A DNA stretch of 55,740 bases from Candidatus Thorarchaeota archaeon. Its GTDB lineage: Archaea > Asgardarchaeota > Thorarchaeia > Thorarchaeales > Thorarchaeaceae. The stretch is taken from positions 1 through 55,740 of the forward strand of contig JAGXOC010000006.1 in NCBI GenBank assembly GCA_019894665.1, in the 5' to 3' direction. The notes under the pieces are model-generated. The model saw only the letters and a program-made list of their open reading frames with translations. It ran no database searches and was not told where the DNA came from. Each line of letters opens with the position of its first letter. The first letter of the stretch is position 1. Positions 3,707 to 33,129 of the stretch are shown in pieces. Made by a program: the position numbers and the translations under genes.

Positions 3707-3793
3707 GGTTACATCACTCGCTATTTGGCTAAATCGACGCTAGCGGTCTTATCAAACTTCCTCTACTCCTCAGATGTCACATCCGATGACTTT

Positions 3794-3844
3794 ATATCGC
3801 ATTCGATATCGAAAAATATCGTATTCGATAATCGTATCCGATAT
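3794..3844. promoter_or_regulatory. Three tandem 16-bp palindromic operator-like sites upstream of the PadR gene
   Basis: ATATCG-CATT-CGATAT (3794-3809), ATATCG-TATT-CGATAA (3816-3831) and TAATCG-TATC-CGATAT (3829-3844) lie directly 5' of the PadR start and its SD (GGTGA at 3852-3856). Confidence 0.5.
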
Positions 3845-3852
3845 TACTGAAG

Positions 3853-9438: not shown

Positions 9439-10632
9439 TCACACAACTAGGGTTTCCCATTCAATCTCATAGGCTGTACTTGGAAACTGCTGTTGAATTT
9501 CTTCGCGCGTATTAGCAATAATCCTATTCATCGGTTGTGCTCCAGTCAGATCTTTTACTCTTCTGGTGATAAACTGCATTATCACTCTGAACCCGTCGTT
9601 CAAAACGTCCGGTCCAATTGTTCCCTTAATGGTTGCAGCAGTGAGTGAGCTCCGCATCTCGATGTCAACGCCCTCCTCCAATGTGACGTATGCCATCCAG
9701 GGATACGTGCCAACCAACTTTTCTCTTGAAACAAGGAACACCTTCCTCATCGCGGTTATTCCAACAATTTTGGAGCATCCCTTAAGGAGAGAGTGTAGAG
9801 CAGATGTGTAACGCACTGCAACTGCATGTGCAGGAGTAACTAGTTCAATCATCTTTCGCTTCTCTAGAATAGCTACATCTTTGAGAAACCTCTTCATATC
9901 AGAGGTTCTCATTCTCTCAGCAGCAATAGAAACGGGTGTTTCACCGTCAAGTTCCGACAATGCTTTCGCAGTTTCTGGAGATAGTTTTTCATCTTCTGCT
10001 CCAGGTCTAGTTATAGATGTGGCCTGATAGATATCATCGGGCTTGACTGGATTATACACTGTGATTGCGTTCTCCCACAGTGCCTCTGCAGCTAGATTCA
10101 ATGCAACCTCAATAGGTACCTCAAGGAATTCAGCAGCATCCTTGACTGAACAAATCGATGGGATTATTCGTAAGAATGACATGACATCGGGTTTCTTGGT
10201 ATAGTGTTCCCACCCCGCGCGTACAGTAATGACAGTGTCCGGAATGATTAGATATCTAACGAACTCATCAATGACACTCTGTTCAAAACGCGTTTGAATT
10301 GCTAGGTCGATGTCAACCCATCTTAACACACTGAATTGCTCTTCAAACCGTTCAATCATTCTCTTTAGTTTGGTCCTGATTTGCGCTGAGTCTTCCTTAG
10401 TTGAAACGGCACCTAATGTCCATTCACCAAACTCTACTACAATCTTGTAATCAGTCCCTTCAAATGCTCGTGCTTGCGAGGTGATTGATTGGGTTGCCTC
10501 ATCGAAGAATGAGGTCATGGCAACAAGAAAGGAAGAAAGTAGCTGCGGGTCAAATCCTGATTCCGTGAAGTCCTTGTGATATATGCAAACTCCTGTATCT
10601 CGCTTAATGATATACAGATTATTGATATTCAT
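9439..10632 (-). CDS. Hypothetical protein with a possible roadblock/longin-like N-terminal domain
   Basis: 397-aa ORF. The N-terminus LYIIKRDTGVCIYHKDF....DPQLLSSFLVAMTSFFDE matches the pattern I associate with roadblock/longin-fold regulatory modules. The rest is unassigned. Confidence 0.5.
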   Translation of the reverse strand: MNINNLYIIKRDTGVCIYHKDFTESGFDPQLLSSFLVAMTSFFDEATQSITSQARAFEGTDYKIVVEFGEWTLGAVSTKEDSAQIRTKLKRMIERFEEQFSVLRWVDIDLAIQTRFEQSVIDEFVRYLIIPDTVITVRAGWEHYTKKPDVMSFLRIIPSICSVKDAAEFLEVPIEVALNLAAEALWENAITVYNPVKPDDIYQATSITRPGAEDEKLSPETAKALSELDGETPVSIAAERMRTSDMKRFLKDVAILEKRKMIELVTPAHAVAVRYTSALHSLLKGCSKIVGITAMRKVFLVSREKLVGTYPWMAYVTLEEGVDIEMRSSLTAATIKGTIGPDVLNDGFRVIMQFITRRVKDLTGAQPMNRIIANTREEIQQQFPSTAYEIEWETLVV

Positions 10633-20348: not shown

Positions 20349-20720
20349 CTAGTAACCCCATTCCTGCCCTTGTCTTTGACGATACCATCTCTGTCCTTTC
20401 TTAGTGAGAGAGTATTGTCCTTGGATCTCTGATAGAAGCCCCATTTCCACCATGTTGCGAAGCACGCCGAACAGTTTGTCATCTGAGGCTCCTGTGACCT
20501 CTTGGAGTCCGGGGAAGTTCATCTTCCCATTTCTTTTCAGATGCTGAGCAATGTCGTACTTGCCAACTGATCTAGTTTCAGTTCGCACTATGATGTGGCC
20601 GCAGTTTGTGCAGAGGAGGTCTCCTTTGTTATCATCGCGGGCGACTTCCTTACTACCACAGATCGGGCAGGTCGTCTTTGAGAATCTTAGTGAACGTCGA
20701 TGTGACATAATTCCGACCAA
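20349..20720 (-). CDS. Small TFIIB-type zinc-ribbon plus winged-helix protein
   Basis: CPICGSKEVARDDNKGDLLCTNCGHII matches the TFIIB zinc-ribbon pattern. The C-terminal ..LRNMVEMGLLSEIQGQYSLTKKG.. looks like a wHTH. Confidence 0.65.
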   Translation of the reverse strand: MVGIMSHRRSLRFSKTTCPICGSKEVARDDNKGDLLCTNCGHIIVRTETRSVGKYDIAQHLKRNGKMNFPGLQEVTGASDDKLFGVLRNMVEMGLLSEIQGQYSLTKKGQRWYRQRQGQEWGY

Positions 20721-20771: not shown

Positions 20772-21290
20772 CTACTGCTTCTCTGAAACGAGGTCTCTGA
20801 AGAATGCCTCATAGTCTATCTCAAAGGGTACTCGAAGACCTAACCGCACTTTCTTTCCTGCTTGGTCAATCTCAATATATCCCTGTTTCTGCAACTCCCT
20901 CAAATCATCCATTACTCCCCTCAGGCTCTTCTTACGAAACTCCCGCACTCGGTCATAAGAGACCCAACCGCCTTCCTGATAGGCCAATGTGATGACTATG
21001 AGCAAGGTCGCAGCTAACCGATCCGGGAGCGCCGATTCTTCCTGGCTGATCTTTGACTGTATGGAAGTGTCGACGTAGAATACTCCACTCACCGGATTGT
21101 GTTTGATGGTGAGGCCAACTGGTTCCAATCGAGTATGCAATTCACCCAGGCGTCTGAACAGGATTTCTCTACCCAAATCCTCTGGGAGGCCAAGAGCATC
21201 AAGCATATCTTCTACTCCTGCACCGATGGGGTCTCCTGACCTAGTTAGGAGTTTCATAAGGATGGCATACTCGTTCATTGTGTCCAACAC
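20772..21290 (-). CDS. ScpB-like tandem winged-helix (kite) protein
   Basis: 172 aa. ILMKLLTRSGDPIGAGVEDMLDALGL...LGELHTRLEPVGLTIKHNPVSGVFYVDT and LPDRLAATLLIVITLAYQEGGWVSYDRVREFR..GVMDDLRELQKQGYIE follow the two-WH ScpB pattern (EALLF..gePl...; LS.aaLEtLAIIAY.qP.tr.ei..iRG). Confidence 0.55.
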   Translation of the reverse strand: MLDTMNEYAILMKLLTRSGDPIGAGVEDMLDALGLPEDLGREILFRRLGELHTRLEPVGLTIKHNPVSGVFYVDTSIQSKISQEESALPDRLAATLLIVITLAYQEGGWVSYDRVREFRKKSLRGVMDDLRELQKQGYIEIDQAGKKVRLGLRVPFEIDYEAFFRDLVSEKQ

Positions 21291-21456: not shown

Positions 21457-21561
21457 ATGGCTCTAACAACTAACTCTCGCAAATCATCCGAGTTGAAGAA
21501 TAAGAAGTCCGTCTTTAGCACTGACGCTATCTCCTACGCATACGTCACTGTTGTAAGGTGA
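21457..21561 (+). CDS. Micro-ORF 1 (34 aa), paralog family
   Basis: Hand translation: MALTTNSRKSSELKNKKSVFSTDAISYAYVTVVR*. It shares N-terminal T(T/N)NSR and C-terminal (T/A)(D/E)A(I/L/V)..(A/T)Y..(V)RR with micro-ORFs 2 and 3. It is below the 60-aa track cutoff. Confidence 0.4.
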   Translation: MALTTNSRKSSELKNKKSVFSTDAISYAYVTVVR

Positions 21562-21576
21562 AGTGTTTGAACAATC

Positions 21577-21667
21577 TTCTGAGACATCTGAACTGGCTTT
21601 TGGTTGATCCAGTCGTGGCCCAGCGTGGTCATCCGATGGTCACAGATGTGGTCAGTTCGTCTCAGAA
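21577..21667 (+). other. Long interrupted hairpin carrying four phased GTGGYC(A) repeats
   Basis: TTCTGAGAC (21577-21585) pairs with GTCTCAGAA (21659-21667), and GAACTG (21590-21595) pairs with CAGTTC (21653-21658). The interior holds GTGGCC (21615), GTGGTC (21625), ATGGTCA (21636) and GTGGTCA (21648), spaced 10-12 nt apart. Confidence 0.45.
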
Positions 21668-21710
21668 ACAGCATATCCTGTGACCAGCCTATAGGAACGT
21701 GTGAAAGATA

Positions 21711-21821
21711 ATGAAATCAACTAACAATTCCCGATTGTTTCGTCTTGTCGACGAGACTCGATTCACTCACGTACAATCTGCTGAAGCACTGGCTTATGCA
21801 TACGCTACAGTAAGAAGGTGA
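21711..21821 (+). CDS. Micro-ORF 2 (36 aa), paralog family
   Basis: Hand translation: MKSTNNSRLFRLVDETRFTHVQSAEALAYAYATVRR*. Its stop lies in AAGGTGAAG, which serves as the SD for micro-ORF 3, 4 nt downstream. Confidence 0.4.
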   Translation: MKSTNNSRLFRLVDETRFTHVQSAEALAYAYATVRR

Positions 21822-21825
21822 AGAA

Positions 21826-21924
21826 ATGGCACTCGCAAAGATACAAGGAATTCCTCGTGTTTGGCAGAAGACTAAGACTGTCGTAACCACTGACGCAGTG
21901 GCTAGGACCTACTTTAGGAGATAA
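21826..21924 (+). CDS. Micro-ORF 3 (32 aa), paralog family
   Basis: Hand translation: MALAKIQGIPRVWQKTKTVVTTDAVARTYFRR*. It ends 5 nt before the MFS ATG, and its last codons contain the MFS SD (AGGAG). Confidence 0.4.
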   Translation: MALAKIQGIPRVWQKTKTVVTTDAVARTYFRR

Positions 21925-21929
21925 TTCAG

Positions 21930-23270
21930 ATGACTGAAGTTGTTAACATTGAAGAAACAGAGACGCAGGATGATCCAAAGGGATTCAGAGTAGTACTTGC
22001 TCATCGTGATTTCTCATTACTATGGTCTGGTCAATTAGTCTCTAACATTGGTACAGCAATCGCTTCACTAGCACTCATGTTCTATGCGTATGCCCTGACT
22101 GGGTCTGCTATGGCAATGGCAGTTTTAGCTATAGCTCAGACACTTCCAGTTGTCGCTTTTGCTGGTCCAATCGGTGTTTACATCGATCGATGGAACCGAA
22201 AGAAGATCATGGTCGCTTCTGATGTTGTCCGCGCAGTCGCGATTCTCCTCATTCCTCTGACAATATACTTCCCCTCTTTCATGCCCACAATCTATTGGGT
22301 TTACTTGATCACATTTCTCTACGCTACTGCTAATGCGTGGTTCTTTCCCGCAAGGAGTGCATCAATCCCCAATCTCGTCGAAGGCGATGAGTTGGTCGCA
22401 GCCAACTCTCTATCTCAGATGACATTTCAGGTTGTTCAGTTAGTAGTCCCCCCACTTGGTGGGATCCTTGTTGCATTCCTTGCACCTAATTACTTCCTAG
22501 CATTCGCTATCAACTCTGCAGCTTTCGTGTTCTCCGCATTTGCACTTCGAGGAATCACAACGAATCTCATCCCTAACCGTGTTTCTGATGACAAGGAGTC
22601 GCTGATGGCTCAGATGAAGCAGGGTGCTCGATATGTGATTGGTAATTCGATTCTCTCATTCCTCTTCGTATTTGCAATGCTCCTCGCGGGCTCATCAGGC
22701 ATCCTGAATGCACTGATTATGCCATACCTTGGAGGTGAGCTCGGTCTAGGTTCCGCTCAACTCGGTCTTGTCTTAAGCGCAGGTGCGGCCTCAGGAGCTT
22801 TAGCCGCAGTGTACTTTAGTCGCAAGAAGGAGCTTGAGAAACCTCTCTATCTCGTCACAACAGCTGGGCTCCTCGCAGGCGTTGCTATCTTTGCACTTGT
22901 CCTTGCATTTGACTTGGTGACTGTTATGTTGTCATGGGCAATGATTGGTGCAGTGGATGTCATTCTTAACATTCCACTTACTGTCCTTATGCAGGAACTT
23001 GTTGAAGATGAGCTGCGCGGTCGTGTCTTTGCACTTCTCAGTGTGGCATTCACAGCAGTGCAAGTTGTTGGAATGGGCATAGGTGGCGTCTGGGCTGAGG
23101 CTGTTGGATCAACAGGTCCTCCAATGATTGGTGCTGCCCTTGCGCTTGCAATCGTTTCATTAATTGGTTTCCTAGTAGTTGCTAAGCTGAACCTTCACGC
23201 AGGTCTTTCAAAACCAAGTGATGAAGTACCAGAAAACGAAGAGGAACTTCTAGTTGAGGTACCTGCTTGA
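21930..23270 (+). CDS. MFS transporter (EntS/DUF894-like efflux type)
   Basis: 446 aa with ~12 TM segments. N-terminal FRVVLAHRDFSLLWSGQLVSNIGTAIASLALMFYAY and the ..DRWNRKKIM.. loop are typical of this MFS subgroup. Confidence 0.85.
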   Translation: MTEVVNIEETETQDDPKGFRVVLAHRDFSLLWSGQLVSNIGTAIASLALMFYAYALTGSAMAMAVLAIAQTLPVVAFAGPIGVYIDRWNRKKIMVASDVVRAVAILLIPLTIYFPSFMPTIYWVYLITFLYATANAWFFPARSASIPNLVEGDELVAANSLSQMTFQVVQLVVPPLGGILVAFLAPNYFLAFAINSAAFVFSAFALRGITTNLIPNRVSDDKESLMAQMKQGARYVIGNSILSFLFVFAMLLAGSSGILNALIMPYLGGELGLGSAQLGLVLSAGAASGALAAVYFSRKKELEKPLYLVTTAGLLAGVAIFALVLAFDLVTVMLSWAMIGAVDVILNIPLTVLMQELVEDELRGRVFALLSVAFTAVQVVGMGIGGVWAEAVGSTGPPMIGAALALAIVSLIGFLVVAKLNLHAGLSKPSDEVPENEEELLVEVPA

Positions 23271-23288: not shown

Positions 23289-23300
23289 TTTCTTTTTCTT
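23289..23300 (+). terminator. T-rich tract after the MFS gene
   Basis: TTTCTTTTTCTT starts 19 nt after the MFS stop, consistent with archaeal oligo-T termination. It overlaps the convergent ScpA-like 3' end. Confidence 0.3.
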
Positions 23301-23967
23301 AAGTTGTGTCAACATCTGACACTGAGGGTCTCCAGATCTCTCGTGTTTCAGGATTATAGTGTAACTGCCCCTTGGAGACCAAGATTACTACATAGAGGAA
23401 GTGTTTGAGAAACAAATCAAACTCTTCATTCATCACAAGATCATCGAACTTGATTTTCTTGTCCTCTGAAATTGTTGCTAGGAATCGTTCCAAATCCTCA
23501 AGAAAGACAGAATCTTCAGTATCGAAAGCAAATCCATTTGGTAGTGTCGTGATCTTGGGAATTGGATCTTCAGGGGGCTCTCTTGACATTGCCTCAATCA
23601 GCGTCAGAATTCGATTGAGTGCATCTCCAAGTGAATCTTGCTCTAGATGTCCTATGACAACTGGTTGTTTCATAGTCACCAACTTTGCGAGATTCCTCAT
23701 GGACAGCTCCTTAAGTCGGCTCACATAGATTTCGGGGGCTGCGAGTATTCGGGCAAGTTCTTGAACGCGATTGACCTTTGTACTCAGAATCTCATTCAAC
23801 ATCTCATCAATGTCAATCCGGCTGTCAATCTTGGCAGCCAATTCTTGAAGGTCTTTGTATGCTTGAGTCAATCGGAGTTCAAGTGGATCAATCTCACCTG
23901 TACGAACAGCTTGCACCATGTTGAAGACACTCTCGGCAAGACTTTCGTTTTCACTCACGACTATCAC
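23299..23967 (-). CDS. Kleisin (ScpA-like) subunit
   Basis: GTG start 3 nt after the SMC stop. N-terminal ..GEIDPLELRLTQAYKDLQEL.. and C-terminal winged-helix-like ..FLKHFLYVVILVSKGQLHYNPETREIW follow the ScpA N- and C-terminal patterns. Confidence 0.6.
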   Translation of the reverse strand: MIVVSENESLAESVFNMVQAVRTGEIDPLELRLTQAYKDLQELAAKIDSRIDIDEMLNEILSTKVNRVQELARILAAPEIYVSRLKELSMRNLAKLVTMKQPVVIGHLEQDSLGDALNRILTLIEAMSREPPEDPIPKITTLPNGFAFDTEDSVFLEDLERFLATISEDKKIKFDDLVMNEEFDLFLKHFLYVVILVSKGQLHYNPETREIWRPSVSDVDTT

Positions 23968-23970
23968 TCT

Positions 23971-26900
23971 CTACTGAGTCTTGAACTTGGGGCTCTCGAT
24001 TATTAGCGAGGGTTCAACACTATTTGGTGAAACGACACCCAATATTTTGTCAGCATGTTTAAGCAAGTGTGTACTTTTGGCTGGAGTGAGCAGAATGAAC
24101 TGGCTACGCCGGGACGCATCATGAAACAGGCGACTAACAAGTTCTGTGTTTGTTGCGTCTAGAAATGTATCAACTTCATCCATAACGTACACCGGTGCAG
24201 GATTGAACCTCTGCAATGCAAGTATCAGGCTAATTGCAATTAGGGACCTTTCTCCACCAGATCCCGCGCTGATATCACCAAAGCCCTCCGTTTTGATTCT
24301 TGATTTGAATTCCACTCCATATTTTCCATCTCTGAGAGCAAGCTCGAATCTGACACTGCCTGGGAATTGTACTCGCCCCAAAACCTCGTTCACACCCTTC
24401 TCCACCTTTCGAAGAGTTTCATTCATTCCGTTGTGATATTGCTCTCTGATGTTCTGTACTGCAGACTCTGCTTCATCCAGTTCCTCGCCTAGCTCAGCCA
24501 CACGTTTAACAAGTTCTCTTAGCCTGCCCTTCAATTGGGTCTCTGTATGAGCCACAGTTTCCGAAACATCCTGATAGTCATCTAGGATATGTCTAAGTTT
24601 TACGAGTTCGCTCCTAACAAGGTCGATACCTCTGATGTTATCAGGTCTGCTTTTTCCTTCAATTTCCTGTTCAACTAATTCAAGATCATACTCTAGGTTT
24701 GTCAGTTGCCTTTTTGATTGCAAGACCTCAACCCTACGGGTTTTCACAAGTAGATTCAGTTCAATCAGTCGCTCACTCAATGTGCGTGATGTCTTCCTAA
24801 TCTCTGCAAGTTCCTCTCTGATCTTTGTTTGTCCTTTCTTTGTTTCCTCTCTTCCAGTACGCATGACCTCTATCTTATCAAGAATTGAGGATGCTGCATT
24901 CTTTGACTCTTTGATATCCTTACGCAAGTCAGTGAGGCTATCAGATTGCATTGTGATACTCTCTCTGATTCTCTTCAGTTCCTGACGTTTGAGATCTTCA
25001 TCCCTCTCAGAGGCATGTGCTTTGTTGTCGACCTTCGTCAGGTCACTCTGAAGACGTCGGTACTTTGTTCGGATTGCAGACTCCTGTCCTACCAATCTGC
25101 TTCGTTCAGGAGGTTGTGTGCTGTCTAGTTTTCTGAGGTCTCTCTCAGACTTACCATAGTCCCGTTGAAGATCTTTCAGCTCATCATCAATAGATACTAT
25201 TCGTTCTCCAAGCTCTGGTATGCTCTCGTTGAGTTTCCGTCGACGTTCCCATGTTGCCCCCCAACGGGTCATCTGACTGATCAGGTCCATGGTTTCTTCT
25301 CGTTCATTCGAGAGTGTTTCCAATCTAGTCATGATATCTGTAACGCGTTTACGTTCTACTGTGAGATCCTTCTCGATTTTTGCCAAACGAGTCTGAAGTG
25401 GAGCCGTAGAGACCATTCCCGATGGCTCACTCTTTGGATGACTGACAATCCGCGCGTCATCAGGAATTGTCACAGAACCATCCCTAGTGACCGTTCGTAT
25501 ATTCTGTTTCGTAGCAAGTCGTGACGCTGTTTGAGAGTTCTTCACTAGAACGAAATCGCCGAATACTCTGCGTAAGAGGGATTGTGCCTCCGTATCTGCT
25601 GAGAGCCGATTCCAGAGCCAATCCTCGACACCAGCCCCTTGAGGTAACTCAGGTCTCTCTTGTACGCTCTCCTCTTTCAAGAGAATTATCGGGGACGGAG
25701 CCTCCTCTTTGTTTCGTAGCTTGAGTAGTAATTGATAATCAGAAGAATCCGTTGTGACAAATCCCAGTGGGAGGTTTCCTGAGAGGACTCCTTCCACAGC
25801 AGCCGCGATTTCATCATCAGCTGTGAATAAACTGATGAGTGGTCCATACACTGTTTCCAAATTGTGCCCTGAAATTGCTTCACTGAGATTTCTGACTGAT
25901 TCAGGTATGCGTTTTGAGGTTTCAGATAGTCTAATCTTGATGTCGTCAATCTCTTTCTGGAGTTGAGAAACCAAACTCGTTTTTCTGAATCGTTCCTCAT
26001 TGAGAGACGCAATTTCTCGCTCTAGTTGAGACTTCTTTCCTGCAAGTTCTTTCTCATCTGTCTTTTCGATCTTATCCCATACGTGGGACCATTTGCTCTC
26101 CATTGCTTGGAGCTCAGCTTCTTCTATCTGGAGTCTTTCACGTAGACTTCTCATAAGTAGGTCCTTGCCCTCTAACTCAGCCTGGAGTGCTTTGTAGAGC
26201 CCATGTGCTTCTGCTCTCTTCGTGTTCCATTCAGCAAAGGCTGCGAGCTCATCCCCTATTCGTGCTCGTTCATCTTCCAATTCGCTGAGTTCTTCACGTA
26301 GTATCTTCTGTTGGTCCATGTATTGTTCTCGTGCCGCGGACACACGTTCTAAATCCTCACTGAGCTTCTCCTCTGTTCGTTTCTCAGCCCTTACGTTGTT
26401 CTCAAGCTGACGAAGTTCTACTACATGCTTCTTAGAATCCCCTTCAAGCCTAGCAATGTTTCGTTCTTCTTCCTCAATCTTTGCATCTATTCTACCCAGT
26501 TCTGTCTGGAGCCCTGAAAGTTTGGTTTCAAGTTCTGTGCTTTCTTCTTCTTGTTCCGAAATATGGCCTTCAATCTCCCTCTGCTCTTCTATCACACCTA
26601 CAAGACCTGATTCCTTTGTTTCAATCTCATCCTTTACCTGCTGAATTCTGGTTGAAAGGTCATCGAAACTAGCCCACTTCAATTCCTGCCCCAAATCTCT
26701 TTCCTGATCTTGTAGGGCTCTCTTCTTCTCAAGCCTAGAGAGATCATGTTGCAGCAACTCAAGTTCTCGCTCTACTATCTTAGACTCCGTTAGAGCTGCA
26801 TCGAGTTTCTGACGACTCTGAAAAACTTCAGTCTCTTGTAATCTAATTCTATCCCGAAGTACATCAAGTCCCGTTCCCTCTTCTACGAGTCGTCTGACCT

Positions 26901-27339
26901 CAAAGGGATCCATTTCTCGTATTGCATTGATTCTTTCCTGAGGCATGAAAACCAAAGGATTGTCACTATCAAGTCCGAGAGCCCCAATCATCTGCTTATG
27001 CTCAACCGCCTTGATTCGTCGTCCATCTGCATAAGCTCTAGGGATACCATCTCTATCAATACGTCTCAGAAACTTTCTACTTTGCCCATTCACCTTTACG
27101 GTGATCTCAACCTCCGCCGTGCTTGCGCCGTGTCGGATGAAATCGCTCCACTTACTATATCGGTTCTCTCTTTGATTCGAACCAAGTGCGAATTTCAAAG
27201 CGTGGAAGATGGATGTCTTTCCTGAACCATTTGGTCCAGCGAGTACTGTGAGACCTTTATCGAACTCAGCTGTTCCTGCGTAAAAGGACAGAAAATTTCC
27301 CAATCTTACTGATTCAATATTTACCTTGGTTTCACTCAT
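23971..27339 (-). CDS. SMC-family ATPase, divergent (SMC5/6-like hallmark residues)
   Basis: 1122 aa. Walker A GPNGSGKTS, long Glu/Lys/Leu-rich coiled coils, a central hinge (..VYGPLISLFTADDEIAAAVEGVLSGNLPLGFVTTDSSDYQLL..), signature SGGERSL, Walker B VYVMDEVDTFLD and C-terminal SQFILLTP. Confidence 0.85.
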   Translation of the reverse strand: MSETKVNIESVRLGNFLSFYAGTAEFDKGLTVLAGPNGSGKTSIFHALKFALGSNQRENRYSKWSDFIRHGASTAEVEITVKVNGQSRKFLRRIDRDGIPRAYADGRRIKAVEHKQMIGALGLDSDNPLVFMPQERINAIREMDPFEVRRLVEEGTGLDVLRDRIRLQETEVFQSRQKLDAALTESKIVERELELLQHDLSRLEKKRALQDQERDLGQELKWASFDDLSTRIQQVKDEIETKESGLVGVIEEQREIEGHISEQEEESTELETKLSGLQTELGRIDAKIEEEERNIARLEGDSKKHVVELRQLENNVRAEKRTEEKLSEDLERVSAAREQYMDQQKILREELSELEDERARIGDELAAFAEWNTKRAEAHGLYKALQAELEGKDLLMRSLRERLQIEEAELQAMESKWSHVWDKIEKTDEKELAGKKSQLEREIASLNEERFRKTSLVSQLQKEIDDIKIRLSETSKRIPESVRNLSEAISGHNLETVYGPLISLFTADDEIAAAVEGVLSGNLPLGFVTTDSSDYQLLLKLRNKEEAPSPIILLKEESVQERPELPQGAGVEDWLWNRLSADTEAQSLLRRVFGDFVLVKNSQTASRLATKQNIRTVTRDGSVTIPDDARIVSHPKSEPSGMVSTAPLQTRLAKIEKDLTVERKRVTDIMTRLETLSNEREETMDLISQMTRWGATWERRRKLNESIPELGERIVSIDDELKDLQRDYGKSERDLRKLDSTQPPERSRLVGQESAIRTKYRRLQSDLTKVDNKAHASERDEDLKRQELKRIRESITMQSDSLTDLRKDIKESKNAASSILDKIEVMRTGREETKKGQTKIREELAEIRKTSRTLSERLIELNLLVKTRRVEVLQSKRQLTNLEYDLELVEQEIEGKSRPDNIRGIDLVRSELVKLRHILDDYQDVSETVAHTETQLKGRLRELVKRVAELGEELDEAESAVQNIREQYHNGMNETLRKVEKGVNEVLGRVQFPGSVRFELALRDGKYGVEFKSRIKTEGFGDISAGSGGERSLIAISLILALQRFNPAPVYVMDEVDTFLDATNTELVSRLFHDASRRSQFILLTPAKSTHLLKHADKILGVVSPNSVEPSLIIESPKFKTQ

Positions 27340-28413
27340 TTATTGTCGTCCCATTATTCTATGAAGTCTATCGCTGCTCTTTTTGGCTCTGAGAAGACGA
27401 GTCAATCGGTCCTCAGCAGAACCGGTCAGAAGGAAAGGATGTCGACTCAGAAACTCACGATCTTTCACAGACAGGGGCAATCCTTCATTTAGGACCTCTA
27501 TCACACGTTGAGTTTCGGCATAGTCATCACCCACTGCCATCATGTAAAGTTGGTCCAGAAAGTTGTCTGGATATTCCTCACTCAATTTGCTTAATTCTGG
27601 CTGTCGAGTGCCCCTAGTTTTTCTGATTAATGATTCGAGGAACCTTGAGTCTCCGAAAGCTGCTACTCTGCTTTGCTCAATGAGTTCCTCAACCTTTTCT
27701 CTTGGCATCTCCCCACCTTCACCTGTCTCTTGCATGTAAAGGCTTAATGCAAGGTGGTTCACATCTGAGAAGCCCCACCCATCGGTGAGTTCTGCAATAA
27801 CCGACACATCAAAGTCTTCTCGGTCCTTCAAGACTTGTTCAAGAACACGGATTCTGTCATCGATAGATGTGCCTTCCACGATGTACGTTCTATCAAACAG
27901 TGCTAGTAGCTCTCTATCTACCAGTTCCGGTCTAGTTGTGGCTGCAATGGTGATCACTTCTTCCTTGCTCCAATCTGTGCTTGTGATCTCATCTTGAAGT
28001 ACAACTGATTGAACTGAGTCTCTAGGTGCAAGAAACTCAAGTTTCTCGATGTAGAGCAATGCTGGTGAATTTCTTCGAGCGAACTCAAACCCCTCTCTTA
28101 GTGCATCATTACTCCTTTTGTTCTCGTCAAGAACTCCTTCCATCTTGAAACGAATGATTTTGATTGGGATTTCCCGTGCAAGAAAATGTGGAAATGCACC
28201 AAAGTCACTACCAGGTGGTCCAACGAGAAGGACTCTTCCCCCAAATTCCATCCCTCTCTCGACCATCTTTGCCTTTAGGACATCGTACCGTCTGAGCAAA
28301 TGGAGATACTCCATGGCAAAATTCACCAATGAGTATTGACTCACACGTTCTACTGGTACTTGTTCGGGAGTGGTAAGGGTGACGGTTTCAATGAATTCTT
28401 TTTCTTCGCCCAA
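27340..28413 (-). CDS. AAA+ fold protein with degenerate Walker A and Walker B (predicted pseudo-ATPase)
   Basis: The classic AAA layout is conserved (GRVLLVGPPG..., ..VITIAATTRPELVDRELLALFDR.., ..LTDGWGFSDV..). However, the P-loop reads GPPGSDFGA (no GKT; nt 28195-28221) and Walker B reads LLYIEKLE (no DE; nt 28036-28059). Its TAA stop directly abuts the SMC ATG. Confidence 0.7.
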   Translation of the reverse strand: MGEEKEFIETVTLTTPEQVPVERVSQYSLVNFAMEYLHLLRRYDVLKAKMVERGMEFGGRVLLVGPPGSDFGAFPHFLAREIPIKIIRFKMEGVLDENKRSNDALREGFEFARRNSPALLYIEKLEFLAPRDSVQSVVLQDEITSTDWSKEEVITIAATTRPELVDRELLALFDRTYIVEGTSIDDRIRVLEQVLKDREDFDVSVIAELTDGWGFSDVNHLALSLYMQETGEGGEMPREKVEELIEQSRVAAFGDSRFLESLIRKTRGTRQPELSKLSEEYPDNFLDQLYMMAVGDDYAETQRVIEVLNEGLPLSVKDREFLSRHPFLLTGSAEDRLTRLLRAKKSSDRLHRIMGRQ

Positions 28414-28549: not shown

Positions 28550-29518
28550 TCATGAACTCCCTTGTTCATTCTCTCCATGACTAGATTTTAGTCTAGAGGA
28601 TAGTATCCAAACTGGCACACCAATCAATAACCAGATAATGGCATCTCCAATTGTAGCTAGGATGTAGTTAGCACCACCGGGATCCAACCAGATGTGTCCT
28701 AATGTCATCATTTTGACTAGGGGAAAAATCAGTAGAAATCCAAATAATCTCTGGAGCGATATTGCGTCCACTCTGGTTGCATATCTTGGACCTATGACCC
28801 CCCCCACTATCATTCCCAATCCCATTGCCAGTCCATAATATAGGACCGTGGTCATGCTTTCAGTTTGTGCCAGAACTAGGTAATTCATCACTGAACCTGC
28901 TGAGGAGGTGAATATCATAGTGAACATCGATGTCGCAGCTGCCATTATCATCGGAAATTCTAGTATGATACATAGCACTGGAACAATGATAGTCCCCCCA
29001 CCTAATCCGAGCAGACCTGCTGAAATACCGGCCACGAATGTCGCCGAGATGGATAGAACCATTTTTCTCCTGCTCAGTTGTGAAAAACTCAAGCACCTCA
29101 TTTGGCTAATGGATTGTTCTTTGTTATCTCGCTGAGACAATAGTAGTTTCAATGCAACCGGGAATAGAGCTACGCCAAACACAAGTTGTAAGATATGCGC
29201 ATGTGCCACAATGGTTCTTAGAACAACCCCCACATAGGATCCTGGTACAGTGGCAATGACTAAAATTCCACCAATTCGGAAATTGATTGGTCGCGGAGTT
29301 TGTCGATAATATACGATTGTACAAACAACTGAAATGAAAAGTGCTGAAAGCAGAGATGCCGCAGATGCCAGCTCAGCACTTAGTGCGAAAATTATGATCA
29401 GAATTGGAGTCTTGAATGCTCCACCACTTATCCCCGTCATTGATGCGATGATTCCCATTCCAACTGAGATTAGAACAATAAAAGTGAATTCAACTATCAG
29501 CTGCTGCACAGGAATCAC
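28550..29518 (-). CDS. TauE/SafE (DUF81) family anion permease
   Basis: Two internal halves each carry the family motif (MTGISGGAFKTPILII and LGLGGGTIIVPVLCII); ~8 TM helices. Confidence 0.8.
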   Translation of the reverse strand: MIPVQQLIVEFTFIVLISVGMGIIASMTGISGGAFKTPILIIIFALSAELASAASLLSALFISVVCTIVYYRQTPRPINFRIGGILVIATVPGSYVGVVLRTIVAHAHILQLVFGVALFPVALKLLLSQRDNKEQSISQMRCLSFSQLSRRKMVLSISATFVAGISAGLLGLGGGTIIVPVLCIILEFPMIMAAATSMFTMIFTSSAGSVMNYLVLAQTESMTTVLYYGLAMGLGMIVGGVIGPRYATRVDAISLQRLFGFLLIFPLVKMMTLGHIWLDPGGANYILATIGDAIIWLLIGVPVWILSSRLKSSHGENEQGSS

Positions 29519-29682: not shown

Positions 29683-31401
29683 GTGGTTCCAATGAGTGCG
29701 AGTGAGAAACTTCGAGAGCAAGTATTGAATGTCATATCTACGGTTGAGAGTAGGGGTCTCTTCGTACACTCCTCAGACCTTGAAATCAAATACAACGCAT
29801 CAGGATCAAGTAAGAAATCTGTAAAGACAACCAGATTGCCCTTGATTGTAGGTTCCTGTGTGCTGAATGCCCTTGTTCCCCGGTCTGCTATGCTCCTAGT
29901 GGGTGGCCATGGCGGTGGAAAGACAACACTTGTGAAACTGCTAGGTAGAATGATGACGGGAAGGTCTCTCGATGATGTTGAGGATGGCATACTACGCGCG
30001 CACCCCCAGATTACAGAAGAAAAAATGGTCGCCACACTAAAGCCAGGACCCCTAATGAAAGAGGGAGTTGAGGTAGTTGTCTGGCGCCGCTTTATCACTG
30101 ACTTCTGGAAGATAATCGATGAGGTAAACAGACTCACACCACATGCTCAAAATATTCTGCTATCTCTCTTAGCAGAGGGAGAGGTGAAGTACTACGATGA
30201 GATCAAGCGGTGTGAGGAATACTGTCTTTATGCAACTCTGAACCCTGCGGATGCAGGGACATTCGAAATAGGTCCTCCTTTTCTAGATAGATTTGGAATG
30301 GCAGTTCCCATAACAATGCCAACTGTGAATGACTTGGAACTTATTCTTGCAGCTCGTGATGAGCGACTCTTTGGATATGACGAGCTCTGGCAAGTTCCCG
30401 CAATGCTCACGGAAGAGAATCTGCTAACAATTTGGAACCTGGCTGACAAGGTGCATGTATCGACTGACGCATCCGAGTTCATGCGATCAGTTGTGAGAGA
30501 GTTCGGAGCGTGTATCCGTGCTGACAAGAGCCAGTCCTCAGGTTTCACAGTTGAGACCGGCCTCTGCGATGGGTGCCACTTTAGCACTACGAAGAGTGTC
30601 TGCAATAAGGTGATCATTCCCTTGAGTGTACGAGCTGCTAAAGATCTCAATAGATACTCAAAGGCCGCTGCATGGCTAGTGGGCGCGCAGGAGGTGACGG
30701 TAGAGATTGTCAAGTCTCTGGCTCCTCTTGTCTTCTGGCATCGCACTCGACTTGTGAGGGATGAACTTGAACGGTCTCCCTATTACGGTGATGTCTATGC
30801 CTATACCAAGCATCTCGTGGAACTAGCTGCATCTAGATTTGCTCAGAGAGCCCCTGCGATCGCTATTATGGACAAGCTGAAGCAGGGTCAAGAAACAAAG
30901 GATGCAATGGAAGAACTCAAGGAAATGGCAAAGAGTGATCTACTAGTTCGTCTTGATTATACTGCTTTTGCGAAAGAGTTGAGAAAGTCTGGATACACAA
31001 AGACCGTGAAGGATATCGATAAGGGGATTAAAGGTCGTGATGTTGAACAACTGACTAGGATACACGATGGCTTACTTGCGGATACAGAGTTTCCAAACAG
31101 GAGCATGCTTCTGAAACAGGTATCAGATGCCCTTCATAGACTCACCCTGACACAATTTGCCATAACCTTTGAACAGTGGCAAGACCTCTGGACGACGATT
31201 AGTCTGCAATTTCCAAAACTGACAAGCGTGCTGAAAGAAACCCTCACTCCTCCCAAGAGAAAGATTGTGAGAACTGATGGGCTTACTGTCGTCATCTATA
31301 CAACTGGTGACTCTCCAGAGTCAGCTGTGTTTCTTGAGATATCCGGTGGAACTGACGCTCTGAATCTGAAGAAAGAGATTGAGAACCAGATAGGAGTGTA
31401 A
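29683..31401 (+). CDS. MoxR-like AAA+ ATPase with a long C-terminal extension
   Basis: Walker A LLVGGHGGGKTTL, Walker B WKIIDEVNRLTPHAQNILLSLLAEGEV, sensor region CLYATLNP...PFLDRFGM. About 250 extra C-terminal residues. The ATG at 29692 (after the SD AGGTGG) is the likely start. Confidence 0.75.
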   Translation: MVPMSASEKLREQVLNVISTVESRGLFVHSSDLEIKYNASGSSKKSVKTTRLPLIVGSCVLNALVPRSAMLLVGGHGGGKTTLVKLLGRMMTGRSLDDVEDGILRAHPQITEEKMVATLKPGPLMKEGVEVVVWRRFITDFWKIIDEVNRLTPHAQNILLSLLAEGEVKYYDEIKRCEEYCLYATLNPADAGTFEIGPPFLDRFGMAVPITMPTVNDLELILAARDERLFGYDELWQVPAMLTEENLLTIWNLADKVHVSTDASEFMRSVVREFGACIRADKSQSSGFTVETGLCDGCHFSTTKSVCNKVIIPLSVRAAKDLNRYSKAAAWLVGAQEVTVEIVKSLAPLVFWHRTRLVRDELERSPYYGDVYAYTKHLVELAASRFAQRAPAIAIMDKLKQGQETKDAMEELKEMAKSDLLVRLDYTAFAKELRKSGYTKTVKDIDKGIKGRDVEQLTRIHDGLLADTEFPNRSMLLKQVSDALHRLTLTQFAITFEQWQDLWTTISLQFPKLTSVLKETLTPPKRKIVRTDGLTVVIYTTGDSPESAVFLEISGGTDALNLKKEIENQIGV

Positions 31402-31407
31402 TCTTCA

Positions 31408-33129
31408 TTGTCGAGAGCTTCTGCAGATGCCCCTCACAAACACGGGCTCATGGAAGTAGCTCGACGTGCTTGGGAGCAGGCTCTCATTGACTTCTATCAT
31501 CCGCCTCTTCCAGAACCAGAGATCGAGAATGAGTTCGAATCTGCGAGTTTCTTCTACATTGACTCCGAGAGCTGGACAGTCCATCTCAATACAGCAGGGG
31601 TTCCTCTTCATATGGATGCAAACGAAGCCGAGCCATATCTGAGGTCTGTCTGCCATCATGAGATTCAGCATTATCTTCTATGTCCCTACGACGGAGTGAC
31701 TAATGGGCTGATGTTTGCTGCAGCCAGGAGGAAGGTCAATGATGCTACGGCAATGTTCGTATGCAACTTGTTTGCGGACCTTGTGGTTGACTCTAAACTT
31801 CTCAAACAGTTTCCATCTTTGACGCATAGTCGCATCAATGCATCGATCCATGAATCTGCGATGAGGGTCAGGGAACATAGCCCTCTTTGGATCTTGATTG
31901 TAGCAAGCTACCGTGCAATGTGGGGTTTTCCCATACCTGCTCTAGCTAGTGTTGATCAACCCACCTCAGAGGCGGCCACAGCAATTGCTAATGTTGCTCG
32001 AAAATCAATTGATACTGAAAAACTGTGGCCAAAAGCCTGCGAGAAGATTGCGGAGATCATTACGGTTTGGATGCCGGAGGATGATGATGAGCAATTGCCT
32101 GGATGTGGCACAGTAGGGTCAGGGACTGAAGGAGATATCACGACCATTATGGTGCCATTAGATGTCGATACCATGATGGGTAGTCCAATTGAAGTAAGAA
32201 ATGGAGACCTAGCGCGAAAGTGTTTACAAAACGACTCGCCCTCTGACATGGAGGCTGAGATGGAAGAATTAGCTGTAGAGGTTGAACAGCGTGGCGGAAA
32301 TCTAGCGGACCTGGATGGAGTGTATCTCACCGCCGGTTATGGAAACCCTCGGGAGTCTTGGATACGATTCTGGTATCGTGCAAAAGCGAGAGGATTGCTA
32401 CGATTCGATGTTGACGAGCGGAAATTCTCTGGTCTTGCTCCTCTTACACCTCAGGTCTGGAGACTGGGTGATCCCATAGAAGAGTTGGACATCGTGCAGT
32501 CACTTCAAGCCTTTCCAGTTCTCATTCCTAACCTGTCCACACGTAAATGGTTGAAAGTGACCTCAGAGGGGTTGGAACAATCAAAATCTCTTCCTGACAT
32601 GCTCCTTGTGATTGACTCTAGTGGTTCAATGACATGGGGTGTGACCTCCAAGACTATCCGGGGTCCCTATCATACCGCACTAGTGGCAGCTTTTGCAGCT
32701 ATGGACGTGGCGTTGCGAAGGGGTTCCAGAGTAGCCACAATCAATTTCTCAAGTGGTAGTTTATCGAGCAAATGGTCAACCGCCAAAACCGAGGTGGAAC
32801 GTGTCCTCCTTGCCTACCAGGGTGGAGGCACAGTTGCTCCTGTGAAGAAGATTACCGTGGTTTGTGAAGCCGCCGAGTCAAAGGTCATGGTGCTTATGAT
32901 GACCGATGCTGAGATCGCTAACTGGGACAAGTTTGTTGAGTCTGTTCGTAATCTATCTATTCGCGGCCACAAGCTGTACTTGTTTCACATCAGTGGAAGT
33001 AGTGGGAAGAATAAGAGTAAGACACAGCATGCCCTTGAAGATGTTGGAGCAGTTGTGTATCCAATCAAGTCTGTAAAGGATTTGCCCGGTCTTGTGGTTA
33101 GAGAAGTTCGCAATGTGTATGGTTCATAA
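31408..33129 (+). CDS. HExxH metallopeptidase-like domain plus VWA domain protein (DUF2201/COG3864-like)
   Basis: HHEIQH (HExxH at nt 31657-31671) in the N-terminal domain. VWA MIDAS motif LLVIDSSGSMTW with later ..VLMMTDAE.. in the C-terminal domain. Located 6 nt downstream of the MoxR-like gene. Confidence 0.75.
   Translation: MSRASADAPHKHGLMEVARRAWEQALIDFYHPPLPEPEIENEFESASFFYIDSESWTVHLNTAGVPLHMDANEAEPYLRSVCHHEIQHYLLCPYDGVTNGLMFAAARRKVNDATAMFVCNLFADLVVDSKLLKQFPSLTHSRINASIHESAMRVREHSPLWILIVASYRAMWGFPIPALASVDQPTSEAATAIANVARKSIDTEKLWPKACEKIAEIITVWMPEDDDEQLPGCGTVGSGTEGDITTIMVPLDVDTMMGSPIEVRNGDLARKCLQNDSPSDMEAEMEELAVEVEQRGGNLADLDGVYLTAGYGNPRESWIRFWYRAKARGLLRFDVDERKFSGLAPLTPQVWRLGDPIEELDIVQSLQAFPVLIPNLSTRKWLKVTSEGLEQSKSLPDMLLVIDSSGSMTWGVTSKTIRGPYHTALVAAFAAMDVALRRGSRVATINFSSGSLSSKWSTAKTEVERVLLAYQGGGTVAPVKKITVVCEAAESKVMVLMMTDAEIANWDKFVESVRNLSIRGHKLYLFHISGSSGKNKSKTQHALEDVGAVVYPIKSVKDLPGLVVREVRNVYGS

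Follow-up and report, generated by a model that had tools for sequence, protein, structure and literature searches.

A catalytically degenerate AAA-family gene upstream of a divergent SMC in Thorarchaeota and other Asgard archaea

Results

Gene content of the locus

We analyzed a 55,740-nucleotide stretch of contig JAGXOC010000006.1 (hereafter the window) from Candidatus Thorarchaeota archaeon (GenBank assembly GCA_019894665.1). Three tightly packed minus-strand genes encode a 357-aa AAA-like protein (27340–28413), a 1122-aa SMC (23971–27339) and a 222-aa kleisin-like protein (23299–23967). The AAA-like gene starts with TTG, and its homologues begin at the same N-terminus (MGEE..). Its TAA stop abuts the ATG of the SMC, and the TAG of the SMC is followed by 3 nt and then by the GTG of the third gene. 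A further minus-strand gene (20772–21290) encodes a 172-aa kite, followed by a 123-aa protein with a TFIIB-type Zn-ribbon and a winged helix (20349–20720, minus strand; Pfam Zn_Ribbon_TF, E 2e-8). The observation made in the initial sequence-only reading is thus confirmed, as the open reading frames, the junctions and the motifs lie exactly as it described them.

Kleisin and kite genes are separated in the window by a plus-strand MFS transporter gene (21930–23270). This gene is found between kleisin and kite in loci L003–L024 of our numbered set but is absent there in L001, L025–L037, L041, L043 and others, and is hence an insertion specific to the window's sub-clade and not part of the system. 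Likewise, a minus-strand TauE/SafE permease gene (28550–29518; Pfam TauE) upstream of the AAA-like gene is present only in about 12 loci of this sub-clade (L004–L014 and L018, while several loci of L003–L024 lack it) and does not belong to the system either. Beyond it, on the plus strand, lie genes for a 572-aa MoxR-type AAA+ ATPase (29683–31401; Pfam AAA_5, E 9e-12) with an intact Walker A (GGHGGGKT) and for a 573-aa protein combining an HExxH N-domain with a C-terminal VWA domain (31408–33129). In an alignment of the latter family, H84-E85-x-x-H88 (31657–31671) is invariant, as are the residues of the complete MIDAS site, D403-x-S405-x-S407 (32614–32628) plus T475 and D500. VWA or VWA_2 was found in 16 of 17 members, while the N-domain has no Pfam or PDB hit.

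The AAA-like protein lacks every catalytic motif

Pfam assigns the first protein to AAA (PF00004, E 2e-10), and a profile comparison with the PDB retrieves NVL, p97 and Cdc48 (E about 1e-26). Its AF2 model (pLDDT 85.8) has FtsH, p97-D2, PAN and Msp1 as top Foldseek hits, in line with a classic-clade AAA fold. In the alignment to p97 and NVL, GPPGSDFG (residues 65–72; 28198–28221, minus strand) lies on GPPGxGKT (GPPGCGKT in p97/NVL), such that Gly becomes Asp and Lys becomes Phe, and LLYIEKLE (residues 119–126; 28036–28059, minus strand) lies on hhhhDExD, with E123 and K124, which are variable within the family, at the D-E positions. The sensor-1 Asn, the Arg fingers and the aromatic pore loop are also gone. 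In 52 family members G65, D70 and F71 are invariant and G68 is nearly invariant. Of 183 homologues, nearly all of the named ones are Thorarchaeota.

The best-conserved part of the protein is an approximately 80-aa C-terminal helical domain (residues 279–357; 27343–27579, minus strand; YPDNFLDQLY...RLTRLLRAKKSSDRLHRIMGRQ), with a column identity of 0.82 compared to 0.66 for the AAA module. This domain is the hallmark of the family across Asgard lineages and was recognized in Jord, Baldr, Hod, Loki and other proteins, yet searches of Pfam and the PDB returned no match.

SMC, kleisin-like protein and kite

The SMC contains SMC_N (E 1e-37) and SMC_hinge (E 3e-9), and Walker A, Q-loop, signature motif, Walker B and hinge are intact. 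It is not a canonical archaeal Smc: it scores far below the equivalog cut-offs (TIGR02169, 288 bits against 729; a second model, 240 against 567), and the distinct, Asgard-specific SMC clade to which it belongs separates from 40 canonical SMC representatives in 40 of 40 neighbor-joining bootstraps. The strings GSGKTSI and DFIRHG are present, as are QFILLTP (residues 1080–1086; 24082–24102, minus strand; within SQFILLTP) and the signature motif SGGERS (residues 1027–1032; 24244–24261, minus strand), where canonical SMCs have QFIVV[ST][HL][RN] and SGGEK, respectively. Both QFILLTP and SGGERS occur in human SMC6 (PDB 9lwi_A; RQFILLTPQ). However, the clade profile scores higher against SMC1–4 (241–275 bits) than against SMC5/6 (188–200 bits), so that overall similarity does not favor SMC5/6.

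The third gene is plausibly a kleisin. It always lies between SMC and kite, and the only PDB hit of the family profile is the C-terminal winged helix of P. furiosus ScpA (4i99_C) at the matching C-terminal position, albeit with E=1; the same region aligns weakly to B. subtilis ScpA. The assignment hence rests on position, size and two statistically insignificant matches, the protein has no Pfam hit, and no family member hits Pfam ScpA even at E<=10. For the 172-aa protein, the AF2 model (pLDDT 74) shows two winged-helix domains, and the top nine Foldseek PDB hits are all kites (JetB, Nse1/Nse3, ScpB, MAGE-G1/NSE1), although no family member hits Pfam ScpB even at E<=10.

Conservation of the gene order

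The order AAA–SMC–kleisin–kite holds in all 56 Thorarchaeota species loci where both genes could be called, with an AAA-to-SMC gap of 0–22 nt, which shows that the tight packing is not due to chance. The SMC-to-kleisin gap is −32 to +17 nt in 45 of 46 loci, and the kite directly follows the kleisin (−16 to +8 nt) in 16 Thor loci. The Zn-ribbon protein gene is conserved 42–122 nt downstream of the kite in Thorarchaeota and in context L062, and its product has the highest minimum identity of the cluster's proteins across the loci (67–92%). MoxR is present in all Thor loci with enough flank, divergent from the AAA-like gene, and where the permease is missing the spacer between the two is 130–300 nt. 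The neighborhood is core and housekeeping and is syntenic with a complete Thor chromosome.

The order also holds in 10 of 10 other Asgard contexts, from Jord, Baldr, Hod, Lokiarchaeum ossiferum, Sigyn-like, 'Odin'-labelled and further lineages, where an AAA-family gene lies immediately upstream of the SMC (homology confirmed by hmmsearch, E 1e-11 to 1e-65) and the kite, where it could be read, follows the kleisin by up to 13 nt. Eight of these AAA genes are catalytically dead, some without any recognizable P-loop (AEEGMMAE in Jord, ADPRSMID in Baldr). Two, in contexts L067 and L070, keep a complete catalytic motif set and look fully active, so that the ancestor was probably a working ATPase; the C-terminal domain of the L070 protein, however, did not align to the family profile. 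In Baldr and Jord (contexts L061 and L063), the MoxR and HExxH-VWA genes are co-directional with the operon and overlap or nearly abut. The AAA–SMC link persists where MoxR-VWA is absent (Hod, Loki, Odin-like, L066, L068, L070 and L071). With MoxR-VWA adjacency absent in 6 of 10 non-Thor contexts, and L062 having MoxR without a VWA gene, this pair cannot be a universal part of the system. Apart from these 10 single look-ups, most of the conservation evidence comes from one class (Thorarchaeia), where synteny is generally high and the DHODB/GltD, YjeF and DUF359 neighbors are conserved as well.

Discussion

With this in mind, the interpretation given in the sequence-only reading is partly supported. 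Its proposals that the AAA protein is a conserved pseudo-ATPase and an obligate operon partner of the SMC, that the SMC is not canonical, that the third gene is a kleisin (plausibly so), that the 172-aa protein is a kite and that no such partner has been described are supported; in our literature search, no paper linked an AAA or MoxR protein to an Asgard SMC complex. By contrast, the kite is not a separate gene that merely lies nearby, since ancestrally it directly follows the kleisin as the fourth gene of the operon, and it is not ScpB-like at the sequence level. Nor is the AAA partner always inactive. The conserved MoxR and HExxH-VWA neighbors and the Zn-ribbon/wHTH gene had been missed. 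As to the proposed relation to SMC5/6, the shared motifs and a published phylogeny that found only SMC5/6-related SMCs in the one Thorarchaeon it sampled stand against the higher profile scores towards SMC1–4.

We thus propose, with moderate confidence, that the window carries the Thorarchaeota version of an Asgard-wide operon of AAA-family, SMC, kleisin and kite genes, followed in Thor by the Zn-ribbon/wHTH gene. The SMC looks catalytically competent from its motifs and, with its kleisin and tandem-winged-helix kite, should form an ordinary tripartite DNA-entrapping ring, a paralogue distinct from canonical Smc-ScpAB. In this view, the first gene descends from a working classic-clade AAA ATPase that carried the family-specific C-terminal helical domain, and in Thor and most other lineages Walker A, Walker B, sensor-1, the Arg finger and the pore loop have been lost while the protein stays under purifying selection. 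The most likely role in Thor is that of a non-enzymatic accessory subunit or adaptor of the SMC complex, which would dock through its conserved C-terminal domain and regulate loading, unloading or head engagement. In Thor, Baldr and Jord, the MoxR ATPase and its HExxH-VWA(MIDAS) co-factor may supply ATP-driven remodelling in trans, resembling MoxR-vWA ternary systems in which the third component is an inactive NTPase (the remodelling principle and such systems are described in PMC9976466 and PMC7159879). Whereas gene order, conservation, motif loss, folds and clade separation are established by our analysis, physical association, for which there is no direct evidence, the adaptor role and an involvement of MoxR-VWA are inferred, the function from gene context only.

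Among alternatives, it remains possible, though unlikely, that the pseudo-AAA protein is the third component of the MoxR-VWA chaperone system and sits next to the SMC operon only through inherited synteny, without a role in SMC function. The MoxR and HExxH-VWA genes that flank the gene in all Thor loci, their position directly preceding the AAA gene on the same strand in Baldr and Jord, the generally high synteny of this region of Thor genomes and ternary systems with an inactive NTPase or a classic-clade AAA (FtsH) as third component (PMC7159879) speak in favor of this reading. Yet in Hod, Loki, Sigyn-like, 'Odin'-labelled, L066, L068 and L070 contexts the AAA gene still abuts the SMC with no MoxR or VWA gene nearby, the AAA–SMC junction is the tightest in the cluster (overlapping in several other lineages), and in Thor the MoxR gene is on the opposite strand.

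Slightly more doubtful is an SMC-based defence system against foreign DNA (Wadjet- or Lamassu-like), in which the AAA, MoxR and VWA-peptidase proteins would act as sensor or effector parts. MoxR-vWA ternary modules with inactive NTPases are typical of conflict systems (PMC7159879), eukaryotic SMC5/6 and bacterial Wadjet restrict extrachromosomal DNA (PMC10586767), and PADLOC gave weak hits to LmuB, mad3 and IetA. However, these hits are generic ATPase similarities, there is no JetA/B/D or LmuA partner, and the kleisin, kite, MoxR and VWA proteins have no relevant defence-family hit, the only one for the kleisin being a marginal Cas9 match (E 0.006). Moreover, the cluster sits at a fixed position among housekeeping genes in the Thor loci recovered (one locus per record), and the SMC has full-length arms and a hinge.

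A canonical archaeal condensin that has merely diverged quickly, with an unrelated housekeeping pseudo-enzyme upstream, is improbable as well. The best single-sequence PDB hits of the SMC are indeed Pyrococcus Smc heads (94–99 bits), TIGR02169 aligns end to end, the only PDB hit of the kleisin is P. furiosus ScpA, and the highest query-normalised TM-score of the kite is with ScpB 4i98_C. Against this stand the scores below the equivalog cut-offs, the lack of Pfam ScpA and ScpB hits, motif states that differ consistently from canonical SMCs, the bootstrap separation, and published work reporting two distinct SMC operons in Asgard and TACK archaea. Least likely is that the Thor protein still binds or hydrolyses nucleotide through non-canonical residues as an active remodeller, for although the retained AAA fold and P-loop glycines and the invariant D70/F71 suggest a pocket still under selection, the Walker A Lys and Thr, the Walker B acidic pair, the sensor-1 Asn, the Arg fingers and the pore-loop aromatic are all missing, and other lineages have no recognizable P-loop at all.

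The closest known systems are the archaeal SMC5/6-related SMC-kleisin-kite operons of TACK and Asgard archaea (van Hooff et al., bioRxiv 10.1101/2024.01.07.573240; Yoshinaga & Inagaki 2021), which share the order SMC, kleisin, kite, an Asgard host, a kleisin and kite too divergent for ScpA/ScpB profiles, and motif states common to SMC6 (SGGERS, hhhTP and no Asn after GKS). The one Thorarchaeon of that study has only SMC5/6-related SMCs, but the present clade could not be equated with the one so named. That work does not mention any AAA, MoxR or VWA gene (the main text never uses the term AAA), while the operon described here always starts with an AAA-family gene. Canonical prokaryotic Smc-ScpAB condensin has the same head, coiled coil and hinge architecture, a kleisin with a C-terminal winged helix, a tandem winged-helix kite and an operon organization, but the present system scores below the NCBIfam cut-offs, has no ScpA or ScpB sequence match, differs in the Walker A+1, signature and C-terminal motifs, forms a separate clade and has an additional AAA-family first gene.

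MoxR-vWA ternary systems with an inactive NTPase or FtsH as third component (Kaur, Burroughs, Iyer & Aravind 2020, PMC7159879) and MoxR/VWA remodellers such as NorQ/NorD and CbbQ/CbbO share a MoxR (AAA_5) with intact motifs, a VWA protein with a complete MIDAS site, a catalytically dead AAA+ protein encoded alongside and a peptidase-like motif fused to the VWA protein. Those systems are bacterial conflict systems or enzyme-maturation chaperones and none involves an SMC (the term does not occur in PMC7159879), whereas here the module is linked to a core chromosomal SMC operon and is missing in several lineages that keep the AAA–SMC pair. Finally, inactive AAA modules of classic-clade ATPases, such as the FtsHi subunits of the Ycf2-FtsHi motor (8xku/8xkv, among our Foldseek hits), likewise retain the classic AAA fold as a scaffold after loss of catalysis. 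Those are domains or subunits of hexameric motors that also contain active AAA modules of the same clade, while here we find a stand-alone, single-module protein with a novel C-terminal domain, encoded next to an SMC.

Gene arrangement and the AAA-like protein

The three minus-strand ORFs lie exactly where the sequence-only reading placed them, at 27340-28413 (357 aa), 23971-27339 (1122 aa) and 23299-23967 (222 aa), so that the observation itself holds. The TAA stop of the first gene abuts the SMC ATG, and the SMC TAG is followed by AGA and then GTG. Pfam finds AAA (PF00004, E 2e-10) in the first protein, and SMC_N (residues 8-1104, E 1e-37) and SMC_hinge (residues 496-609, E 3e-9) in the second, but nothing in the third or in the 172-aa protein encoded at 20772-21290. 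Homologues place the source in Thorarchaeota (Thor), an Asgard archaeal class. The rest of the window is housekeeping (H+-pyrophosphatase, thermosome, thiolase and HMG-CoA synthase, YjeF), and the window is syntenic with a complete Thor chromosome, CP070761.1. Rfam and tRNA scans of the window found only one tRNA-Ala, unrelated to the locus, and four sizeable ORFs, at 30-1232, 8563-9399, 9439-10632 and 45425-47014 (400, 278, 397 and 529 aa), have no Pfam hit at E<=1e-5.

By its sequence, the AAA-like protein is a true pseudo-ATPase under selection. A family profile matches the D1/D2 modules of NVL, p97 and Cdc48 (E about 1e-26), and in this alignment GPPG[ST]DF (GPPGSDFG in the window) lies on the Walker A motif GPPGxGK[ST], so that Gly becomes Asp and Lys becomes Phe, while LLYIEKLE lies on hhhhDExD. 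Furthermore, the sensor-1 Asn is Thr (TTRP in place of TNRP), the SRH arginines are gone (LALFDR in place of R.GRFD), and there is no aromatic-hydrophobic-Gly pore loop. In 52 family members, G65, D70 and F71 are invariant and G68 is nearly invariant, whereas the Walker B positions vary. The AF2 model (pLDDT 85.8) nevertheless shows the α/β core and helical lid of a classic-clade AAA fold, with FtsH, p97-D2, PAN and Msp1 as top Foldseek hits, and carries an extra helical C-terminal region. This C-terminal domain (residues 279-357) is the best-conserved part of the protein, with a column identity of 0.82 against 0.66 for the AAA core, yet it matches nothing in PDB or Pfam.

The operon in Thorarchaeota

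A scan of one genome per GTDB species returned 58 loci, of which those with an organism name are almost all labelled Thorarchaeota. In every locus with enough flank, genes for a VWA protein and a MoxR ATPase are divergently transcribed from an operon that reads pseudo-AAA, SMC, kleisin, kite and Zn-ribbon/wHTH protein. The AAA-to-SMC gap is 0-22 nt in 56 of 56 loci and the SMC-to-kleisin gap is -32 to +17 nt in 45 of 46 loci. The kleisin-to-kite gap is -16 to +8 nt in 16 of 36 loci and 320-3353 nt in the remaining 20, where the junction is split by insertions, mostly an MFS gene. In the window this MFS gene lies at 21930-23270 (+), and it separates kleisin and kite only in the window's sub-clade (Thor loci L003-L024). 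A second transporter gene of the TauE/SafE type, at 28550-29518 (-), was likewise inserted into the conserved cluster and is present in about a dozen loci of that sub-clade. One of the loci, L018, retains only a remnant of the MFS gene, which suggests gain followed by decay. Directly upstream of this MFS_3 'secretion effector'-type transporter, at 21458-21931 (+), lie three tandem micro-ORFs of about 32-36 aa (MALTTNSRKSS...ISYAYVTVVR, MKSTNNSRLF...LAYAYATVRR and MALAKIQGIP...VARTYFRR), which share a C-terminal Y-x-Y/F-x-T/R-V/R-R-like motif and could be exported-peptide precursors or leader peptides.

The operon is thus larger than the sequence-only reading had recognized, and the 172-aa gene, described there as a ScpB-like gene lying nearby, is ancestrally its fourth gene. 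The AF2 model of the 172-aa protein (pLDDT 74) has two winged-helix units, each H-H-H-β-β, and its top nine structural neighbours in PDB are all kites (JetB, Nse1/Nse3, ScpB and MAGE-G1/NSE1; Foldseek E 5e-5 to 3e-4). The gene is adjacent to the kleisin in 16 Thor loci and in the other Asgard contexts where the gene after the kleisin could be read. Foldseek cannot separate a ScpB-like from a Nse1/3-like kite, as the hits to Nse1/Nse3 (7dg2_C, 5hvq_D) are no better than those to ScpB or JetB. A profile search of PDB gave nothing, none of 25 family members hits Pfam ScpB (PF04079), MAGE or Nse1 at E<=10, and hhalign against a B. subtilis ScpB sequence that was not retrieved from a database was not significant.

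The kleisin label is less secure. It rests on position and size, on the only PDB hit of the family profile, which is the C-terminal winged helix of P. furiosus ScpA at the equivalent place (E=1), and on a similarly placed but insignificant hhalign alignment (E 0.84) to B. subtilis ScpA, again with a sequence that was not retrieved from a database. None of 25 members hits Pfam ScpA (PF02616) or Nse4_C at E<=10.

The gene downstream of the kite, at 20349-20720 (-), encodes a 123-aa protein with a TFIIB-type Zn ribbon and a C-terminal winged helix. It always lies 42-122 nt downstream of the kite in Thorarchaeota and in L062, one of the non-Thor contexts described below, and has the highest minimum identity of the cluster's proteins across the loci (67-92%). 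It could be a DNA-targeting factor or a regulator of the operon.

The AAA-SMC pair across the Asgard archaea

An exhaustive search of cluster representatives with the SMC showed a graded series of relatives scoring about 140-430 bits, above a plateau of ordinary SMCs at about 100-130 bits. Named members are Baldrarchaeia, Jordarchaeales, Hodarchaeota, Sigynarchaeum, Helarchaeota, Lokiarchaeum ossiferum and an 'Odin'-labelled bin. Lineage names for the non-Thor contexts should be treated with caution, since taxon labels of several MAG records are inconsistent: a kite 76% identical to the Thor one is labelled Odinarchaeota, and Thor-like loci are labelled Hod-, Hermod- or Promethearchaeota. The conservation of the neighbourhood had been named beforehand as a test, and we looked up ten of these genomic contexts. 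In all ten, the gene immediately upstream of the SMC is homologous to the Thor pseudo-AAA (hmmsearch E 1e-11 to 1e-65, mostly through the C-terminal domain), with a gap of at most 31 nt and often an overlap, and small kleisin- and kite-sized genes follow the SMC.

Eight of the ten AAA-family proteins have no recognisable P-loop, for example AEEGMMAE in Jord, ADPRSMID in Baldr and SLPGEPIQ in L062. In contrast, two related Asgard lineages (L067:5862-6977 and L070:1485-2615) keep GPPGTGKT, hhhhDEFD, ATN, RRRFD and a YLGE pore loop in the position occupied by the dead protein elsewhere, and so form a natural active/inactive comparison set, as judged from motifs. A metagenome scan for more active-type relatives returned only one irrelevant weak hit. 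The Promethearchaeota-labelled member (L068:256-2127) is 623 aa long and is swollen by low-complexity Lys/Glu/Asn-rich inserts, including a tandem 'SNIEDKAE' repeat, while keeping the C-terminal domain. The simplest reading is an ancestral active AAA ATPase dedicated to this SMC operon, with catalysis lost in most descendants.

MoxR and VWA neighbours

The 572-aa MoxR protein (AAA_5) has an intact Walker A motif (GGHGGGKT). Its 573-aa neighbour, encoded at 31408-33129 (+) and found also at 3552-5177 and 3314-5095 of the Asgard contexts L061 and L063, has a C-terminal VWA domain with a complete MIDAS site (D403, S405, S407, T475 and D500). The N-terminal domain of about 370 aa has an invariant HExxH...C.P.D motif but no Pfam or PDB match. 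As only the invariant HExxH suggests a peptidase, this may be an undescribed metallopeptidase-like domain fused to a MIDAS-competent VWA domain. While the pair is divergent from the operon in Thor, in Baldrarchaeia and Jordarchaeales it directly precedes the pseudo-AAA on the same strand, with overlapping or near-abutting genes. It is absent from the Hod, Loki, Sigyn-like, Odin-like and active-AAA contexts, and L062 has MoxR without a VWA gene.

Affinity of the SMC

The SMC has a split ABC-type head, a long coiled coil and a hinge, and the invariant or nearly invariant columns G35, G38, G40, K41, Q134, S1027, G1029, D1054 and E1055 include the Walker A, Q-loop, signature and Walker B/D-loop motifs. 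It is not a canonical Smc, as it scores 288 bits against a TIGR02169 cut-off of 729 and 240 bits against a TIGR02168 cut-off of 567. The clade has GK[ST]-[SAT] without Asn, DFI[RH]xG, SGG[EQ]R[ST] and Q-hhh-TP, whereas canonical SMCs have GKSN, SGGEK and QFIVV[ST][HL][RN]. On 489 head and hinge columns, the window SMC plus 27 relatives separate from 40 canonical representatives in 40/40 NJ bootstraps, in a tree without eukaryotic anchors.

The sequence-only reading had pointed to strings characteristic of eukaryotic SMC5/SMC6, which is partly verified: human SMC6 (PDB 9lwi_A) has LSGGERSFST...RQFILLTPQ, and yeast Smc6 has SGGEKS...QTIIITPQ. Van Hooff et al. report that TACK and Asgard archaea carry two SMC-kleisin-kite operons, one condensin/cohesin-related and one SMC5/6-related. 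The published 'SMC5/6-related' SMC of Prometheoarchaeum syntrophicum is NZ_CP042905.1_495. The one Thorarchaeon they sampled has two SMC5/6-related SMCs and no other SMC type, in SMC and kleisin sets that were downsampled, and this published table is the only basis here for judging whether a second, canonical SMC is present. Raw similarity, however, does not favour SMC5/6: in PDB searches the window SMC scores best against Pyrococcus Smc heads, its N-terminal half scores best against Rad50, and the clade profile scores SMC2 at 275, SMC3 at 272, SMC4 at 252 and SMC1 at 241 bits, above SMC5 at 200 and SMC6 at 188 bits. We therefore call it an Asgard-specific SMC paralogue, which is probably, but not demonstrably, the published 'SMC5/6-related' one. 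No genes for the Nse2 SUMO ligase or the Nse5/Nse6 loader subunits were seen in the operon or its flanks, though without a dedicated search.

Proposed role of the AAA-family protein

What the analysis establishes is that the SMC has all ATPase motifs and is co-encoded with a kleisin-like and a kite protein, so that a tripartite ring is expected, and that the AAA-family protein is invariably co-encoded first, is catalytically dead in Thor as judged from its motifs, and is conserved, especially in its C-terminal domain. That this protein is an accessory subunit or adaptor, which binds the SMC complex through the C-terminal domain and modulates loading, unloading or head engagement, is an inference, which we regard as the most likely reading and in which it would be the remnant of an ancestral AAA remodeller. 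It is likewise inferred that MoxR and HExxH-VWA, where linked, may supply ATP-driven remodelling, or even proteolysis, in trans. All functional statements rest on gene context and on sequence or structure inference. Altogether, the interpretation offered by the sequence-only reading, an inactive AAA+ partner of a divergent SMC with SMC5/6-like hallmarks, is supported in part.

Of the alternatives, all of which we regard as unlikely, the one that survives best is that the pseudo-AAA belongs to the MoxR-VWA system alone, but this is weakened by the seven contexts that keep the AAA-SMC pair without MoxR-VWA. A Wadjet- or Lamassu-like defence system is weakened by the fixed core-genome position and by PADLOC, which gives only partial generic ATPase hits for the SMC and IetA-like hits for the AAA, none for the kite, MoxR and VWA proteins, and only a marginal Cas9 hit (E 0.006) for the kleisin, without matches to JetABCD or LmuABC families with their cognate partners. 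A canonical condensin was rejected on the NCBIfam cut-offs, the Pfam ScpA/ScpB negatives, the motif states and the NJ split. Residual ATPase activity of the Thor AAA is the least likely, given the missing motifs.

A more far-reaching possibility, which we consider unlikely on present evidence, is that the AAA-family protein, together with MoxR and the HExxH-VWA(MIDAS) protein where present, is a dedicated ATP-driven loader, unloader or ring-opening module for an SMC5/6-related ring in the archaeal relatives of eukaryotes. In this view, the VWA MIDAS site would capture the complex, MoxR, or the still-active AAA in some lineages, would remodel it, and the HExxH domain might cleave the kleisin, which would be a prokaryotic analogue of separase-type ring opening. 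In most lineages, the original AAA motor would have been reduced to a dead adaptor.

Significance and relation to known systems

SMC complexes of Asgard archaea are the nearest prokaryotic models for the origin of cohesin, condensin and SMC5/6, and how these rings are loaded, unloaded and regulated outside eukaryotes is largely unknown. A fourth, AAA-derived gene invariably linked to one Asgard SMC paralogue implies an accessory factor that current descriptions of archaeal SMC operons, which list only SMC, kleisin and kite, omit. The natural series from active to dead AAA and the optional MoxR and HExxH-VWA partners give directly testable hypotheses, and the same operon is carried by the cultured Lokiarchaeia. 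The protein is also a clean example of a pseudo-enzyme kept for more than a class-level time span.

Full-text searches found no paper connecting an AAA+, MoxR or VWA protein with an Asgard or other archaeal SMC complex, and the most relevant study, that of van Hooff et al., does not mention one. MoxR hexamers with VWA/MIDAS adaptors remodel specific target complexes (PMC9976466), and ternary MoxR-vWA systems with an inactive NTPase or an FtsH-type AAA as third component are known in bacteria, although never with an SMC (PMC7159879). In Thor, Baldr and Jord, the locus has the components of such a ternary system, namely a MoxR AAA_5 ATPase with intact motifs and a VWA protein with MIDAS, encoded together with a third component. 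In summary, while the SMC-kleisin-kite operon itself is known, the conserved AAA-derived first gene, its active-to-dead series, its novel C-terminal domain and the MoxR/HExxH-VWA association appear to be new.
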